DNA of 64,000 bases, taken from the sequence record OZ317122.1; one strand, written 5' to 3'. Source of the stretch: a phage. The notes beneath the pieces are model-generated. The model saw only the letters and a list, made by a program, of their open reading frames with translations, was not told the DNA's origin and searched no databases. How positions within the stretch are numbered: the stretch's first letter is position 1; each line of letters starts with the position of its first letter. Both the position numbers and the translations under genes were made by a program. Positions 11,560-63,590 of this stretch are shown here, piece by piece.

Positions 11560-12162
11560 TTATAGATTAAATCCTTCAAAATCAAGAGTATAGATAGTAT
11601 ATGTTGAATACTTTTTGTACTCATATCTATCTGCAATTCTAAATACACTTCCAGCTGGTATCATTACTTCTTGTTCATCTGAAACTAATTCCATATTACG
11701 ATAACGATGACTATCCGGAAACTTAAAGTTTGGATTGTATTCTTTACAGCGTAGAGCTTTTATAGCATACTCCTGGAAATTGAATACCATAGGAGCTTTG
11801 AATTCAAAAATAACTTGTGTGTTATACTCTAAACCGGAAGCAAAATGTAGAGCTATATTTTTATCATATGAAGCTGATACGACTTTATCAAATGTAATAA
11901 TATCAATTCCTTGATTTAACACCTGCTTAGTCTCAGCTGGAACACCTCTCCAAAGAGGTTTATCGTTTGGAACCAAACGAGATTTGATTATTTCATTTAA
12001 CCAAGAATGATCGTCTGGTTTATTAGTAATACAATGAATTAAAAGTTCAATTTCAGATAAATTAAACCCTTCAGAAAGTAATTCTTCACGAATAGAAGCA
12101 CGCACCGATGCATCCATTGATTTTATTTTAAAATCTTTTAGTTGCATTACTGAGTATTTCAT
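11560..12162 (-). CDS. modA: ADP-ribosyltransferase ModA
   Basis: 200 aa; R-S-ExE motif (LWRG, SAS, EQE). Confidence 0.75.
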   Translation of the reverse strand: MKYSVMQLKDFKIKSMDASVRASIREELLSEGFNLSEIELLIHCITNKPDDHSWLNEIIKSRLVPNDKPLWRGVPAETKQVLNQGIDIITFDKVVSASYDKNIALHFASGLEYNTQVIFEFKAPMVFNFQEYAIKALRCKEYNPNFKFPDSHRYRNMELVSDEQEVMIPAGSVFRIADRYEYKKYSTYTIYTLDFEGFNL

Positions 12163-12782
12163 TCAACTACCTCAATATCATAAACTTTAAATGTTCCAAA
12201 TGAATCGTGTAATTTTTCTTTTGAAATAGAAGTTATTCTATACTTTCCAATTGGAATCATCCATTCTTGTTCACGCACAATCATCATTAAGTTATCAGTA
12301 CGCTCTGAATCTAGCCCATCAGTATCTTCATACGTGTACTTAAACTCAGTATTAGGAGAAGAAAGTATAATATCGCTGATATGGTCAGAATAATTAAAAG
12401 CTTTATCAGTTTTTAAGCGAAATATTATTTCAGTGAAATACTCAACATAAGAAAAACCACATGCTGTGTGCAAACTAGTAGTAAATGAATCTACCCTATT
12501 CGTTGAAAACACTTCTCCAACTTGTAAATCTTTAATGAGTTCTTTTGTCGATTTTGATATACCACGATATAACTGATAAGGTGATTTAGTTAAATGCTTT
12601 TTAACGATTTTATTCAACTGCCGATGAAGAGCTTCATTCTTTTTAGCTTCCATACATTGCCAAAGAATTGACTGCTCAAAGTCAGTAAATTTTTCACAGA
12701 CTTTTTTATACATATCATATTGAAAATCAACGCTTTCAGCTTTTATAGATAACTGTTCAACATCTGCAAGATTAATAATCAT
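12159..12782 (-). CDS. modB: ADP-ribosyltransferase ModB
   Basis: 207 aa; R-S-ExE motif (LYRG, STN, EQE); tandem paralog of modA. Confidence 0.75.
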   Translation of the reverse strand: MIINLADVEQLSIKAESVDFQYDMYKKVCEKFTDFEQSILWQCMEAKKNEALHRQLNKIVKKHLTKSPYQLYRGISKSTKELIKDLQVGEVFSTNRVDSFTTSLHTACGFSYVEYFTEIIFRLKTDKAFNYSDHISDIILSSPNTEFKYTYEDTDGLDSERTDNLMMIVREQEWMIPIGKYRITSISKEKLHDSFGTFKVYDIEVVE

Positions 12783-57987: not shown

Positions 57988-58182
57988 TTACTTTATGCCG
58001 ATGCACGGCCTTAACTTTATCAAGGTATTTTCAAAATTTCGCAATCTAGTATAGTCTGCCGGAGATTGGTTGAGTGATACTTCTCGACGCAAAGCTGAAA
58101 TGATATTTCCAACTTCCCTACGAATTTCATCTAATTGAAGCACAGTAAGATTGCGAAGTTGCTTTTCAGTTAATTGTAGCAT
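57988..58182 (-). CDS. hypothetical protein
   Basis: 64 aa ORF. Confidence 0.45.
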
Positions 58183-58224
58183 ATATACCCCTTTAGTTAG
58201 ATAAACCTATTTATAACTTTTGCA

Positions 58225-58806
58225 CTAACCGAGCTTTTTAGTTAATTCATTCCAATGTTTTCTACACAAAGAAACATAAATTTCATCACCAATACAGATT
58301 TGATTACCTTCTTTAACTGGTGTTCCATCTTCCGTTAATCGAGCTGTCATAATCGCTTTTTTACCGCAATGACAAACCGCCTTTAGTTCAATAAGTTTAT
58401 CTGCAATCGCTAAAAGTTCTTTAGAACCTTCAAACAATTTTCCAGCGAAATCAGTCCTTAATCCATAAGCCATAACAGGAACATTATATGTATCAACAAT
58501 TCGACTTAATTGATGCACCTGTTCAGTTTTTAAAAACTGAGCTTCATCTACAAATACGCAATGAATATCTTTTTGTGCTTCAGCCCATTTATAGAACTCG
58601 AAAATATCCATATCATCTGTAATAATATTTGCTTCCTGCCTAATTCCAATGCGAGAAACGACTTCACAGACAGAATCGCGAGTATCAATAGCAGGCTTAA
58701 GAACTAATACACCCATTCCGCGTTCTTTATAATTATGTGCAGCAGTCAAAAGAGAAGCAGATTTTCCAGCATTCATTGCTGCGTAAGTAAAAATTAAACT
58801 CGCCAT
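58225..58806 (-). CDS. tk: thymidine kinase
   Basis: 193 aa; P-loop MNAGKS; C-terminal zinc ribbon CHCGKK...C..HW. Confidence 0.9.
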   Translation of the reverse strand: MASLIFTYAAMNAGKSASLLTAAHNYKERGMGVLVLKPAIDTRDSVCEVVSRIGIRQEANIITDDMDIFEFYKWAEAQKDIHCVFVDEAQFLKTEQVHQLSRIVDTYNVPVMAYGLRTDFAGKLFEGSKELLAIADKLIELKAVCHCGKKAIMTARLTEDGTPVKEGNQICIGDEIYVSLCRKHWNELTKKLG

Positions 58807-58815
58807 ATCACCTTC

Positions 58816-59001
58816 TTAAAGCATATTCACATAAGCTATTAATTCGTTTTCTTTCTTATCAAACCGATCAGCAAATTCTTCTTGCTGTTCGGGAGATAGC
58901 GGGCCGTATTCATCATAAAAGGTGTTTGCTTCTGTATGCTCATCTAGAAGTTCATGGATAAGCTCAAACAATTTATCTTTTTGTTCTTTACTCAGACTCA
59001 T
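58816..59001 (-). CDS. small acidic protein
   Basis: 61 aa ORF. Confidence 0.45.
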   Translation of the reverse strand: MSLSKEQKDKLFELIHELLDEHTEANTFYDEYGPLSPEQQEEFADRFDKKENELIAYVNML

Positions 59002-59171
59002 ATATTAATTTCCAGGAGTTTTAAAATAATTCGCTTTTGCTTAAATATTTCCATAGTTAAATGACCAGTATCTTTTTGACCGATTCCAATGGCAAAACCT
59101 TTATTAACAGCGAGTTCAATTAAATTATCAAGCTCACGTAACACTTCATACTGTAACTCAAAACTATTCAT
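58998..59171 (-). CDS. small hypothetical protein
   Basis: 57 aa by hand translation (MNSFELQYEVLREL...). Confidence 0.4.
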   Translation of the reverse strand: MNSFELQYEVLRELDNLIELAVNKGFAIGIGQKDTGHLTMEIFKQKRIILKLLEINI

Positions 59172-59380
59172 TTCGGTTTACCTTCTTTAACGAAATCTGG
59201 ATAAGGATAAAATCCCGAATAAAATCCTTCACCTTTATGATTGATGCATCCTTTATTAGAACAATAGCACCAATAATCGAAATCACAAGCCATTTCATCG
59301 TTGCATAAAGCAAAAACAACTGGCCATTTACACTTTTCACAATGGGCATTTTTAAGAATACTAGTTTGGCTCATAACCAT
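59168..59380 (-). CDS. Cys-rich small protein
   Basis: 70 aa; CEKCKW...C...C.C...C.NHKG. Confidence 0.45.
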   Translation of the reverse strand: MVMSQTSILKNAHCEKCKWPVVFALCNDEMACDFDYWCYCSNKGCINHKGEGFYSGFYPYPDFVKEGKPK

Positions 59381-59598
59381 GTAACCTTTAAGCAGTATTC
59401 TTCTACATGCTGTTTACGACCTTTCTTATCAATAAAGGTATATTCAACGAATGTTCCAATGTAGTCTTTATCTACATCATGCGGACTATTAATTGGACAT
59501 TTAGTACGGCAAATGCGTTCCCATTGACGAATAATTACTGCCTTATTCTTTGGGTCATATGGATGTGGATAATGTATATTCATAATAACGGTTCCCAA
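59371..59598 (-). CDS. hypothetical protein
   Basis: 75 aa ORF. Confidence 0.45.
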   Translation of the reverse strand: MGTVIMNIHYPHPYDPKNKAVIIRQWERICRTKCPINSPHDVDKDYIGTFVEYTFIDKKGRKQHVEEYCLKVTWL

Positions 59599-60047
59599 TC
59601 AACAATCACAATTTCTAATTTAGAGGAATATGTATCTAAAATCCCCTCAATAATATCCCAGTTCCCTTTACCTATGCCTGCACCAATCCTAGGCATATAG
59701 ATTGTAGGTTTAATCAGTTTATTTTCACCAAACTCATTTAATTCTAACATACAATTCATTAAAGCGGAATACTCAAAATTTGGCCCTGGTTGAAATTGAG
59801 TATAAAGGTTGAAGCAATACGCTTTATGAGTCCTAAAGTATTTTTCATAGACTGAGTAAGAACCGAGTTTAGTTACATCACCCCATTCAGTCTGTAATTT
59901 ATCAGCTTCCAAAATTTTAGGGAAAGCTTTGGTTAATTGACCCGCTACGCCTGAACCCATAGTATGAAAACAATTGCATCCATGCGCAATATTTTTACCT
60001 TCAGCGAAAAGGGCGACAATATCGCCCTTGATATATTTTACAATCAT
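59580..60047 (-). CDS. macro-domain protein (putative ADP-ribose binding/hydrolase)
   Basis: 155 aa; KGDIVALF, GSGVAGQL and PRIGAGIGKG resemble macro-domain motifs. Confidence 0.5.
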   Translation of the reverse strand: MIVKYIKGDIVALFAEGKNIAHGCNCFHTMGSGVAGQLTKAFPKILEADKLQTEWGDVTKLGSYSVYEKYFRTHKAYCFNLYTQFQPGPNFEYSALMNCMLELNEFGENKLIKPTIYMPRIGAGIGKGNWDIIEGILDTYSSKLEIVIVDWEPLL

Positions 60048-60385
60048 CTAGTACTCAATCCTCGATTATAAGAATCTACCAAACGGTCAACCATTGAATG
60101 ACAAGCGGCTTTATCTTTCTCCTCCGCAACTGAACATTCTAAGGTATTCCACTTTTTAGCATATCGTTTTAATAATGTATCGTTTTTGTATCTGCTTGAT
60201 TTATCTCTTTCTCCGTCTTTATATGCATATATTAATTTCTGCGCAAATTCAGCTTGGCATGCTTTATTTTTCCCACAATAATCTGCCGCAGTGCGATTTA
60301 CATATTCTCTAATTTCAGTATATGATGTATCTGCTAACGCAGAAAATGAAATTAATCCTATACATAAAACCAAAATTTTAGTCAT
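60044..60385 (-). CDS. secreted protein (signal peptide)
   Basis: 113 aa; MTKILVLCIGLISFSALA. Confidence 0.5.
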   Translation of the reverse strand: MTKILVLCIGLISFSALADTSYTEIREYVNRTAADYCGKNKACQAEFAQKLIYAYKDGERDKSSRYKNDTLLKRYAKKWNTLECSVAEEKDKAACHSMVDRLVDSYNRGLSTR

Positions 60386-60923
60386 TTACTATTTCCAAAA
60401 GTTTATTATTTTTAAGGTAATTAGCCTTTTCTAGGACTTCAGAAGCATATTTAGAACCTGCTTTAACATTCCATCCCGAATTATAAGAGGATATTGCTTT
60501 TCTTATATCGCCCTTATGTATATTTAACCAATAAGAAAGTTCAATGTACGCCCAGGAAGCTGAATTGGACCGTTTATTCAACATTCTTTTTATTTCAGCA
60601 TCGGTCATATTATAACCAAGTTCCTTAACTCTTGCTCGCATAGTAGGCAAATAATTTTGGAACATTCCATAAGCGTGATGCTTTGGTTTAGATTTTAAAT
60701 TAACTCCGCCAGAGCTTTCTTGCCATAAAATAGCAGCCATTATATGACCTAATCCGCTCTTGTGGATATTTTTGTGTGTTTTATATTTTCCATCCTTAGA
60801 AAATTGTTCCCCGAATTGATACGCGTAACGCATGTTATCGAGTTGGACATTACTGAAAGTATGCTCGGAGCTATGTGCCATCATTGAAATGGCCAATAGA
60901 CCAGCGAGTAGTGCTTTTCTCAT
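60378..60923 (-). CDS. secreted lytic transglycosylase-like protein
   Basis: 181 aa; signal peptide; SLT-like ILWQESSGG catalytic region. Confidence 0.55.
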   Translation of the reverse strand: MRKALLAGLLAISMMAHSSEHTFSNVQLDNMRYAYQFGEQFSKDGKYKTHKNIHKSGLGHIMAAILWQESSGGVNLKSKPKHHAYGMFQNYLPTMRARVKELGYNMTDAEIKRMLNKRSNSASWAYIELSYWLNIHKGDIRKAISSYNSGWNVKAGSKYASEVLEKANYLKNNKLLEIVND

Positions 60924-60930
60924 GCTTACC

Positions 60931-61392
60931 TCATTGAGTTTTAATTACTGCTTTAGAAGCCTTTCCTGGTAAACGACGACTATTGATAATTGCCATCCTG
61001 CATTGAAGCGACGGGTCTTTGAACTTCGCATTAGGTTTACAAACTGTAAATCCAAGCCAAAGATTTCCATCTGTGATTTCTAAACGTCCAGGACGGTATT
61101 CAACCCCATCAATAAAATCCTCATCAATGTCAGGACGCGGAGGCATACTCAGGAATTCATTAACTTCTAAAACATGGTCTTTTATTTTGTGGAATAATTC
61201 AAAAACATATGTCTCATCAATCTCCCGTTGAATTGCACGATCAAGAAGATGCTGAGAATATTTTAGATGAAACGATGAGACCCCTGCTGCTTTTGATGCC
61301 TCACGAATCTCATTGTTAATTTGACGAAACTCCGACTCAAAATGACGACGAAGCTTATTTCGACGGATAAAAACTTCTGTATTGATAGTCAT
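60931..61392 (-). CDS. regB: RegB site-specific endoribonuclease
   Basis: 153 aa; MTINTEVFIRRNKLRRHFESEFRQ. Confidence 0.85.
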   Translation of the reverse strand: MTINTEVFIRRNKLRRHFESEFRQINNEIREASKAAGVSSFHLKYSQHLLDRAIQREIDETYVFELFHKIKDHVLEVNEFLSMPPRPDIDEDFIDGVEYRPGRLEITDGNLWLGFTVCKPNAKFKDPSLQCRMAIINSRRLPGKASKAVIKTQ

Positions 61393-61451
61393 GTTGTTCT
61401 CCTCTTAACTGATAGAAAAATTATACCACAGTCAAGAGGAAAAGTAAACAG

Positions 61452-61772
61452 TTATTCTTTAAATCTAATCAATTTATTCATAGACTTTGAAACTTCTGCA
61501 CGAACCTCATGTAGATTTTTGAGCTGTTCAAGACGCTGCGTATAGTAAGCAATTTCATCTTCTTCGAGACAGTCCTGTGAATCTTCTTTAAGATACCGTG
61601 CATAGTCCTGGAAAGCGTTACGGACTACTTCCTGGAAGTCATCAAGACTTTGAATTTTCTTAGGAGCAGCAGACACACGACGAGGGGCAGTATAATACTC
61701 ATAACCAAACCCTGCGCTTAATTGAGCCATTAGTATTTTTCCTCTGGTTGGAACACAGCACGACAAGCCCAC
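61452..61772 (-). CDS. hypothetical protein
   Basis: 106 aa ORF; early promoter at about 61410-61450. Confidence 0.5.
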
Positions 61773-62032
61773 ATACTGGCTTCTTTGAGTTTCGTTTTAG
61801 CAATAGCTAACTGATCGAGGCTTTCAGCATAATTCTTCGCGAGTTCAAAGTCTTCGCAATTATCTAGTGCTTCCCAGAATTCATCATATAAAGCATCAAA
61901 GATAAGTCCTAAACGAACTTCAGCGTCTTTAATAGCATTTACTTTACCGATTTTTTCGTCGGTATGTGGCTTATAACCTTTAATATCTTCAATCATATTT
62001 GACTTCCTCACCAGTACATAAATCGTATTCAA
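61730..62032 (-). CDS. hypothetical protein
   Basis: 100 aa ORF. Confidence 0.45.
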
Positions 62033-62210
62033 CTAAACGAATAGGTTCATGAATGCCATATCCCTGAACAGAAATTTCTGTCGTAGGATAAATTCCACTA
62101 ATATCACCCATATTCCACGCTTCATTAAATTGCTGTTCGCCTGAATTACTAAACCACTCGGCGAAAGCATTTAGCACATCTTCAGAACCTTCAATAATTA
62201 TCTTTGCCAT
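61989..62210 (-). CDS. hypothetical protein
   Basis: 73 aa ORF. Confidence 0.45.
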   Translation of the reverse strand: MAKIIIEGSEDVLNAFAEWFSNSGEQQFNEAWNMGDISGIYPTTEISVQGYGIHEPIRLVEYDLCTGEEVKYD

Positions 62211-62572
62211 TACAAACTCTCGGTGAAGGTACGAGCGATAACGTCGCGCTGCTGTTCCGGAGTCAGAGAGTTAAAGCGAACTGCATAACCGGATACACGG
62301 ATGGTCAGCTGCGGATATTTTTCCGGATGCTTAACTGCATCTTCCAGAGTTTCACGACGCAGAACGTTAACGTTCAGGTGTTGACCACCTTCAATTTTAA
62401 CTGTAGGCTGTTGCTCAATTTCAATTTCACGGGCATGCAAACCATAGAAAATTTCTGGGTCTACAAAAGAGTCCTCTTTAAAGGTTTTAGAGACAATAAT
62501 TCGTGCTTGAATACCATCTTCAAAATAAATAGTACCTTTATGTGTGCCTTCAAGAATTTGATATGCTTTCAT
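62210..62572 (-). CDS. autonomous glycyl radical cofactor (GrcA/YfiD-like)
   Basis: 120 aa; C-terminal RVSGYAVRF glycyl-radical motif; locally high GC. Confidence 0.75.
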
Positions 62573-62578
62573 ATAACC

Positions 62579-62959
62579 TCAATTAGAAAATAAATTTATC
62601 CAAGATTGTTCTTTAATTAAAAATGGCTCAGAATCATATGCCATTAAACTCTGTGTGATTAGTTCTTTAAAAGGCCCATCAATAAATTCCATGGTAAAAT
62701 ATGGAATTTTATTCATTAGCCGTGCATTAGGAGCCGTGCACAAAACTCTGCATCCTTTGAATACGCCTTTTTGTAATTTGTATTGCTTGGGATAAAATTC
62801 GCTCAAAATGTTATTTTTTGCCAAAATTTCAAAATGATTCACCAATTTATTTTTAATAGTTTTTGGCGAAAAATAAAGATATTCGAAAAGCTGAGTGTCT
62901 GTCATCATTGCATTCCGATTACGAAAAACTGTGGACGAGTAATACCACCAATGCAACAT
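62579..62959 (-). CDS. hypothetical protein
   Basis: 126 aa ORF. Confidence 0.5.
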   Translation of the reverse strand: MLHWWYYSSTVFRNRNAMMTDTQLFEYLYFSPKTIKNKLVNHFEILAKNNILSEFYPKQYKLQKGVFKGCRVLCTAPNARLMNKIPYFTMEFIDGPFKELITQSLMAYDSEPFLIKEQSWINLFSN

Positions 62960-63444
62960 TTAATATTACAGCAGCAGTGTACAGTGTCAATATGGACACT
63001 ATAAATCTTATCCATATCAGGAGATTTGACAGGCTCATCAATTATATACAAAATTCGCGAAAGTGATAAACCTCTGAACTTGCTTCCTTTATTACCAATA
63101 AAACTGCGCACAGAATCAGTAAATAAACGAAAACGTATATCATCATTAGAATAACGCGAAAATTCCTTTTTAATATTATCTGCGGAAATTTTAGCGTAAG
63201 CTGAAGTATTAGAAAGAACAATAACTGTTCCACCGTCATACAACCAATTAGCGGCAAAATTAGTTACTGCAGTTGATTTACCAGATTGACGCCCACCATC
63301 TAGTCGAAGTGTGCAATACTGTTTAAGTAAGTCTTCAAATGGTGGGATATAATCGTTTTTACAAATTTCTTCTACTCTAGCATTAGAATGGTGTGTAAAA
63401 GCATTCATCAGGGATAGATAAGGACCAGTTAAAAATGTTCTCAT
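62905..63444 (-). CDS. hypothetical protein with P-loop-like GRQSGKST
   Basis: 179 aa ORF; 5' part overlaps neighbour, start uncertain. Confidence 0.45.
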   Translation of the reverse strand: MRTFLTGPYLSLMNAFTHHSNARVEEICKNDYIPPFEDLLKQYCTLRLDGGRQSGKSTAVTNFAANWLYDGGTVIVLSNTSAYAKISADNIKKEFSRYSNDDIRFRLFTDSVRSFIGNKGSKFRGLSLSRILYIIDEPVKSPDMDKIYSVHIDTVHCCCNIKCCIGGITRPQFFVIGMQ

Positions 63445-63590
63445 TTTTGTTCTCTCTAGGTTTGGGCCATTCCATGGCGCATGAATTGTCCATTTCTGTA
63501 TTTACCCATTACCGCACTTGGGCTCGACCTTATTACAGGTTGGCGGGAATCCCTCACAGAATCATGAGGTCCAGGTTATTCCCATGTTAT

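Follow-up and report, generated by a model that had tools for sequence, protein, structure and literature searches.

The most probable reading of tk.4 in the phage analyzed here, at roughly 70%, is that it encodes a counter-defense protein against DarTG2, which removes thymidine-linked ADP-ribose from phage single-stranded DNA (ssDNA) by a lysine-independent mechanism based on Gln84 and Asn25. During infection, DarT2 ADP-ribosylates thymidines in ssDNA and so blocks phage replication; in the mechanism we propose, the macro pocket of Tk.4 would bind the ADP-ribose, and hydrolysis of the thymine–ribose bond would give back normal DNA. Tk.4 would act without the catalytic lysine of DarG, TARG1, and the AdfM protein of phage PhiKZ: Gln84, kept in place by Asn25, is predicted to position the distal ribose, and a backbone-held water would start the reaction, as proposed for SCO6735 of Streptomyces coelicolor. 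For both the hydrolysis of thymidine–ADP-ribose and the Gln-based chemistry we reason by analogy with this enzyme.

Identity and Genomic Context of tk.4

The sequence analyzed is a 64,000-nucleotide stretch of phage DNA (record OZ317122.1), referred to as the window. Its open reading frame (ORF) list has a minus-strand frame with the exact coordinates 59580..60047, the translation of which includes all three motifs quoted in the original prediction of a macro-domain-like gene. The 155-residue product is 100% identical to T4 Tk.4 (NP_049723.1; 155/155 residues), and the gene lies between vs and tk.3 in the window as in T4. The stretch from tk.3 to vs.3 shows 98.2% identity to the T4 reference, and the 2 kb around tk.4 are 99.8% identical to many Tequatrovirus genomes; judged by these comparisons the phage is a T4-like Tequatrovirus other than the T4 reference. 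The genes and overlaps of the locus are as follows.

59371..59583, minus strand: tk.3, downstream of tk.4 (MNIHYPH..., 70 amino acids)
59580..59583, minus strand: ATGA overlap of the tk.4 stop codon (TGA) and the tk.3 start codon (ATG), from the sequence
59580..60047, minus strand: tk.4 (adfM) coding sequence, an ATG-started ORF of 155 codons encoding a single macrodomain without an extra domain
60044..60047, minus strand: ATGA overlap of the tk.4 start codon (ATG) and the vs stop codon (TGA), from the ORF coordinates and the sequence
60044..60385, minus strand: vs, upstream of tk.4
60378-60923, minus strand: vs.1, with a signal-peptide-like N-terminus (MRKALLAGLLAISMMAHS)

Because both of its ends overlap the neighboring genes in an ATGA, tk.4 is a cistron in the interior of a leftward string of closely packed genes, in the order regB, vs.1, vs, tk.4, tk.3, two more small ORFs, and tk. 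The overlap with vs (60035-60065, reverse complement: ...AGTACTAGATGATTGTAAAAT) suggests cotranscription and translational coupling of the two genes; the 4-base overlap with tk.3 (reverse complement of 59575-59600: GATTGGGAACCGTTATTATGAATATA) is also present in the T4 annotation. It should be noted that the mechanical ORF list starts tk.3 at a TTG at 59598, whereas the T4 annotation and the ATGA overlap place its start at the ATG at 59583. A scan of positions 58000-63500 for consensus promoter-like sites gave 22 against 21.3 expected from shuffled sequence, and terminator-like sites numbered 4 against 3.5 expected, both at chance level; since these counts are no higher than in shuffled sequence, we assign no promoter to the tk.4 area. 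A promoter-like site at 61448..61420, upstream of regB, is a candidate only. On the plus strand at 60009-60029, antisense to the 5' end of tk.4, there is a terminator-like hairpin with an 8-bp stem, five GC pairs, and a T-rich tail; sites of this kind occur at chance number in the region.

Several labels around the locus call for caution. One GenBank record names the tk.3 orthologue an "ABC transporter ATP-binding protein," which looks spurious for a protein of 70 residues. Some records call vs.1 an "endoribonuclease," probably a label shifted from the adjoining regB; a weak match of vs.1 to SLT transglycosylases was reported in 2006 (PMC1524935).

Between tk and tk.3, the segment 58807-59369 does not align to the T4 reference (its tk.1-tk.2 region) and is, from the sequence comparison, a mosaic replacement within a region that is otherwise 94-98% identical to T4. 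It carries the following ORFs, three here versus two in T4.

58816..59001, 58998..59171, and 59168..59380, minus strand: small ORFs of the replaced segment
59168-59380, minus strand: the last of these, a cysteine-rich ORF of 70 amino acids (CEKCKW...CNDEMACDFDYWCYCSNKGC)

The product of the cysteine-rich ORF is possibly a small zinc-binding protein. Its counterpart in phage PYPS2T is labeled "hypothetical protein."

Earlier Annotation

That tk.4 encodes a macrodomain is already known: annotations have said so for about 20 years, and a 2025 preprint described its action against DarTG2 and gave the gene its name. An A1pp (macro) domain was reported in tk.4 orthologues in a comparative study of 2006 (PMC1524935), and the T4 RefSeq entry reads "phosphatase; contains A1pp phosphatase motif." Several of the near-identical Tequatrovirus genomes carry the labels "macro domain protein" and "Poa1p_like family protein with Macro domain," others "ADP-ribose binding module protein" or "phosphatase." The last of these is attached to PHROG 335, to the T4 RefSeq record, and to many phage homologues among the matches listed; it comes without a supporting assay and is probably misleading for tk.4 and its homologues, given the DarTG2 phenotype. 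A 2026 preprint on phage T2 reports that the Tk.4 protein is detected in T2-infected cells and that tk.4 mRNA interacts with the host small RNA ArcZ in RIL-seq data. The same preprint names tk.4 a "putative thymidine kinase," a mislabel.

Tk.4 Is a Macrodomain of the ALC1-Like Class

The macro fold that the original prediction had read from sequence motifs is borne out by profile and structure comparisons. The Pfam Macro profile (PF01661) matches Tk.4 at 27.7 bits, above its gathering threshold of 22 (E=2.9e-6), aligning residues 22-132 to profile positions 2-113 of 118. To this we added a family alignment of 117 members with identities down to approximately 35%, the profile of which retrieved from the PDB the Bacteroides protein BT1257 (E=1.1e-20), SCO6735 (5.3e-17), TARG1 (5.7e-17), yeast Poa1p (2.9e-15), and the DarG proteins of Mycobacterium tuberculosis (1.2e-14) and Thermus aquaticus (2.8e-12). 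An AlphaFold2 model built from the family alignment has a pLDDT of 96.1 and a pTM of 0.91 and shows the three-layer alpha/beta/alpha macro fold; structure prediction had been proposed as a check, and the fold it returned is macro-like. Foldseek places macrodomains on top for this model, TARG1 first (E=4.4e-10), together with Poa1p, BT1257, and DarG. The nearest structural neighbors are all ALC1-like, with the MacroD, viral, and PARG classes clearly behind. Tk.4 is a stand-alone 17.5-kDa macrodomain of this ALC1-like class, which includes TARG1, DarG, SCO6735, BT1257, and Poa1p.

A Predicted Glutamine-Type Active Site

A GxG ADP-ribose-binding loop is a hallmark of macrodomains (PMC9503650). 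The Gly-rich loops with which macrodomains bind ADP-ribose and phosphate are present in Tk.4 as M30-G-S-G33-V-A35 and I121-G122-A-G124, and they vary little or not at all across the family. The conserved segments lie at the following positions.

59973..59984, minus strand: codons of H22-G23-C24-N25, the "H-x-C-N" active-site motif, kept in 111-116 of 117 members
59943..59960, minus strand: codons of M30-G31-S32-G33-V34-A35, Gly-rich loop after strand 2
59796..59810, minus strand: codons of N80-L81-Y82-T83-Q84, with Q84 at the catalytic-lysine position
59658..59693, minus strand: codons of P119-R-I-G-A-G-I-G-K-G-N-W130, phosphate-binding loop

Among the 117 members, G33 and A35 never vary and M30 is found in 114; Q84 and Y82 occur in every sequence (117/117), N80 in 116, and T83 in 114; in the phosphate-binding loop P119, I121, G122, and G124 are invariant and W130 is present in 115, with T4 having GIGKGNW against GIAGGDW in most members of the family. 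N25, the counterpart of DarG N22, PhiKZ AdfM N23, and SCO6735 N27, is present in 116/117. Other conserved positions are the cysteine after N25, D49, K60-L-G62, and G88.

Profile-to-sequence alignment with hhalign paired Tk.4 Q84 with K84 of TARG1 and G126 with TARG1 D125, using a TARG1 sequence identical to PDB 2LGR. The same program paired Q84 with K78 of PhiKZ gp104, the putative catalytic lysine, and N25 with N23, the gp104 sequence being that given in the methods of PMC13309987. K80 of T. aquaticus DarG is the equivalent of TARG1 K84 (PMC9411070), and its correspondence to Q84 is indirect, by way of TARG1 K84 and the equivalence stated in that study. As aligned, the lysine used by DarG and TARG1 and predicted in PhiKZ AdfM is thus an invariant glutamine in all 117 Tk.4-family members. 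What this adds to the published account is modest: its predicted active site puts T4 AdfM in a lysine-less, Gln-type subclass, unlike DarG and PhiKZ AdfM.

Comparison with SCO6735 and BT1257

A close precedent for a glutamine at this position is SCO6735 (PDB 5E3B), which removes thymidine-linked ADP-ribose from DNA and outperforms DarG and TARG1 in doing so (PMC9411070). It lacks both TARG1 catalytic residues and has Gln85 at the lysine position; the Q85A and Q85E variants are inactive and N27S is nearly so (PMC9411070). In the chemistry proposed for it, Asn27 fixes Gln85, which positions the distal ribose, and a water held by the backbone of Val25 starts the reaction; this proposal is based on molecular dynamics and mutagenesis, with no trapped intermediate (PMC9411070). 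We give SCO6735 residues in native numbering, that is, chain numbering minus a 20-residue tag, so that chain Q105 is Q85.

In the family-profile alignment, the "N-l-Y-T-Q" of the Tk.4 family pairs with "N-M-I-G-Q" of SCO6735 and BT1257, H22-G23-C24-N25 with H24-V25-C26-N27 of SCO6735, and G122 and G124 with its G126 and G128. Tk.4 and SCO6735 therefore share a glutamine at the lysine position and, within H-x-C-N, an asparagine, which in SCO6735 locks the rotamer of this glutamine. BT1257 (PDB 2AFC/2FG1), a structural homologue of SCO6735, also has a glutamine there by profile alignment, at an identity to Tk.4 of only approximately 26-29%. A pairwise phmmer alignment of Tk.4 and BT1257 that laid Y-T-Q on Y-K-D was rejected; the family profile pairs N80...Q84 with N...Q.

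There are also clear differences. The lysines K34 and K89, which position DNA in SCO6735, are not kept and correspond to S32 and Q86 in Tk.4. SCO6735 has an extended mobile loop, which Tk.4 does not; the loop after Q84 is approximately five residues shorter in Tk.4 than in SCO6735 and six shorter than in BT1257. Tk.4 is phage-borne, whereas SCO6735 and BT1257 are chromosomal stress-response genes. From the alignments, and by analogy, we class Tk.4 with the Gln-type ALC1-like macrodomains, as an enzyme that would work like SCO6735 and not like DarG.

Comparison with DarG, TARG1, PhiKZ AdfM, and Poa1p

Among the defense-oriented profile libraries searched, only DarG models match Tk.4, and they do so over their macro part only: NCBIfam NF048014 (DarG) gives E=2.5e-7 and 30.3 bits (equivalog cut-off, 250) over model positions 2-146 of 338, and the PADLOC DarG model gives E=1.3e-9 over positions 2-145 of 329. 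DarG (PDB 5M31, 5M3E, 5M3I) has a C-terminal DarT-binding domain, whereas Tk.4 ends at residue 155 without it; DarG has the catalytic lysine K80 where Tk.4 has Q84; and DarG adjoins darT, whereas the neighbors of tk.4 are vs and tk.3. With a score below the cut-off, a match to the macro part only, no C-terminal domain, and no adjoining darT, Tk.4 is not a DarG.

Human TARG1 (C6orf130; PDB 4J5S) resembles Tk.4 in class, in size, and in the YVKGD and MPRIG-x-G motifs, but its catalytic dyad K84/D125 is replaced by Q84/G126. PhiKZ gp104, also named AdfM, is like Tk.4 a stand-alone phage macrodomain that counters DarTG2, with a conserved Asn (N23/N25). This chimallivirus macrodomain strips DarT2-made ADP-ribose from an oligonucleotide in vitro, and its N23A variant has lowered activity (PMC13309987, Cell Rep 2026). 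The two proteins are only 19% identical over 125 aligned columns, and they differ in active-site type, since PhiKZ AdfM keeps the DarG-type lysine as K78 where T4 has Q84; PhiKZ AdfM is moreover imported into the phage nucleus, a structure that T4 does not have. The isoelectric point of Tk.4 is 5.9, mildly acidic, and that of PhiKZ AdfM is 5.05. Net charge was rejected as a test of DNA binding, because PhiKZ AdfM, a proven DNA hydrolase, is more acidic than Tk.4.

Poa1p (PDB 6LFQ), an ADP-ribose-1''-phosphate phosphatase, aligns poorly with Tk.4 in its C-terminal half. Its H23 corresponds to H22 of Tk.4, and, by eye, its S30 lines up with T29 and the key position seems to hold Ser and no Gln; the mutants in the PDB probe H23, S30, and F152. 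AdfB of phage ICP1 was rejected as a comparator: it works by contacting DarT itself, and with its low identity to DarG (PMC11481870) it is no relative. The CmdTAC paper mentions macrodomains only in its references.

Distribution of the Tk.4 Family

Using tblastn on 50,697 phage records, we found 2751 (~5%) with a Tk.4 homologue. The hosts named among the matches include Escherichia, Klebsiella, Salmonella, Pseudomonas, Vibrio, Acinetobacter, and Aeromonas, with one Bacillus phage, and genomes among the matches listed range from approximately 85 to 250 kb.

Phage T5, the DarTG2-sensitive control phage in two studies (PMC11825919; bioRxiv 10.1101/2025.11.20.689424), has no Tk.4-family gene by our searches: tblastn returned no match and the profile scored at most 9.4 bits, whereas the same profile procedure scores the single copy in the window at 228.9 bits. 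The sensitivity of T5 correlates with the absence of the family, which for one phage is weakly informative. Two T5 genes, T5.102 and T5.105 (L006, 6648-8295), are annotated "Sir2 (NAD-dependent deacetylase)"; the second of them encodes only 168 amino acids and is said to resemble ORFs of T4-like phages. Given these two Sir2-labeled genes, T5 does have genes related to NAD and ADP-ribose, but not the Tk.4-family macrodomain.

Two homologues (P0072 and P0118) are labeled as coming from bacterial metagenome-assembled genomes (MAGs) but lie on T4-like phage contigs, near such genes as those for polynucleotide kinase, dCMP deaminase, and RNA or DNA ligase.

L003 1927-2397 and L004 6001-6480: Tk.4-family genes in MAG-deposited contigs, with T4-like phage gene sets

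The labels "Bacilli" and "Culicoidibacterales" of these contigs probably reflect phage DNA binned into MAGs. Neither of the two contigs checked has a darT beside the Tk.4 homologue; the neighbors are phage genes. As candidates for darT-linked cellular relatives, both homologues were set aside, being phage-borne and uninformative on a bacterial origin. Synteny differs from that in T4: in L003, RNA ligase 1 lies two genes upstream of the macro gene, and a dda-like helicase gene follows immediately downstream of it.

Counter-Defense against DarTG2 and Alternative Explanations

The function of tk.4 is reported in a preprint dated 20 November 2025 (bioRxiv 10.1101/2025.11.20.689424). A T4 transposon library grown on E. 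coli expressing DarTG2 gave tk.4 as the sole significant hit, and a clean deletion rendered T4 DarTG2-sensitive; the authors called the gene adfM, for anti-DarT factor Macrodomain (bioRxiv 10.1101/2025.11.20.689424). The test on DarTG-carrying hosts proposed with the original prediction thus has a published outcome, in the predicted direction, and this supports the suggestion made there that a phage macro domain could reverse or read ADP-ribosylation. Earlier work had found T4 without adfA and adfN (gene 30.3) to be still DarTG2-resistant (PMC11825919), which points to a further factor; the tk.4 phenotype fits. The authors of the preprint note structural similarity to M. tuberculosis DarG and state that enzymatic removal of ADP-ribose "seems likely" (bioRxiv 10.1101/2025.11.20.689424). 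We found no enzymatic assay of T4 Tk.4 in the literature, and no complementation or catalytic-mutant tk.4 phage in the accessible part of the published account.

The main alternative to hydrolysis is that Tk.4 mainly binds and inhibits the DarT2 toxin, as a stoichiometric antitoxin mimic, rather than erasing its marks. The argument for it is by analogy: the catalytically dead variants SCO6735 Q85A, DarG K80A, and TARG1 K84A all lower DarT activity in vitro, SCO6735 most strongly, and SCO6735 Q85A does so through direct contact with DarT (PMC9411070), which leaves room for protection by more than catalysis. The phage anti-DarT factors AdfA and AdfB are also thought to act by direct interaction (PMC11481870, PMC11825919), and Tk.4 lacks the catalytic lysine of DarG and TARG1. 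We nevertheless judge inhibition as the main activity to be unlikely, as the 155 residues of Tk.4 include no counterpart of the C-terminal DarT-binding domain of DarG, and Q84, N25, G122, and G124, whose counterparts in SCO6735 matter to catalysis, are invariant or nearly so down to ~35% identity, a conservation produced by selection on the active site and not for binding one toxin variant. The replacement of TARG1 K84 and D125 by Q84 and G126, and the existence of macrodomains that are pure readers (PMC9503650), could also be taken to mean that Tk.4 is noncatalytic and only binds ADP-ribose or ADP-ribosylated DNA; this is hardly credible, as SCO6735, with the same replacements, outdid the other thymidine-ADP-ribose hydrolases with which it was compared (PMC9411070), and it is not evident that replication would resume if a lesion blocking it were merely bound.

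Two further explanations place the substrate of Tk.4 elsewhere, and we regard each as very improbable. One is that Tk.4 works on small molecules, either as an ADP-ribose-1''-phosphate phosphatase or as an O-acetyl-ADP-ribose deacetylase that cleans up NAD-derived metabolites, with the DarTG2 phenotype being indirect. The phosphatase and deacetylase labels come from domain transfer and not from an assay; no Tpt1/KptA step that would make ADP-ribose-1''-phosphate is known in T4, which counts against this explanation. In addition, Tk.4 has the glutamine of the DNA hydrolase SCO6735, where Poa1p appears, by eye only, to have Ser, and the sole phenotype on record is specific to DarTG2, with tk.4 the single hit. 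The other is that Tk.4 serves as an eraser for the phage's own enzymes Alt, ModA, and ModB, reversing or tuning the ADP-ribosylation or RNAylation of host proteins. The original prediction had pointed to ModA and ModB; ModA- and ModB-like genes are indeed present in the same genome, but nothing was found that links Tk.4 to them, including in a search for publications connecting it with Alt, ModA, or ModB.

11560-12782, minus strand: ModA/ModB-like tandem of overlapping paralogous ORFs (200 and 207 amino acids), assigned to the "RNA polymerase ADP-ribosylase" PHROG

The residue modified by Alt, ModA, and ModB is arginine; arginine-ADP-ribose is cleaved by ARH-family enzymes, no macrodomain is known to cleave it, and such a role is chemically unlikely for these linkages. 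The tk.4 gene also lies approximately 47 kb from modA/modB rather than beside them, and the family occurs in many phage groups (the 2751 phage records above). SCO6735 and TARG1 do also demodify proteins (PMC9411070), which speaks in favor of the own-enzyme role. Hydrolysis of thymidine-linked ADP-ribose on phage DNA remains the reading that we prefer.

Implications for Phage Resistance

DNA ADP-ribosylation by DarT is a widespread antiphage defense, and phage erasers explain the resistance of T-even phages. An active site of the SCO6735 type would argue against calling T4 AdfM a captured DarG, and it predicts that Q84A and N25A are inactivating mutants. We tentatively raise the possibility, which we hold to be rather doubtful as a whole, that T4-type AdfM is a Gln84/Asn25 DNA de-ADP-ribosylase derived from stand-alone SCO6735/BT1257-like macrodomains and not from a captured DarG, possibly with wider substrates. 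If this were true, these substrates may include other thymidine- or uracil-linked ADP-ribose on DNA or RNA and marks on acidic residues of proteins, and the enzyme would be a general eraser acting against several ADP-ribosylating defenses rather than a DarTG2-specific factor; the name AdfM would then span two mechanistically different phage enzymes.
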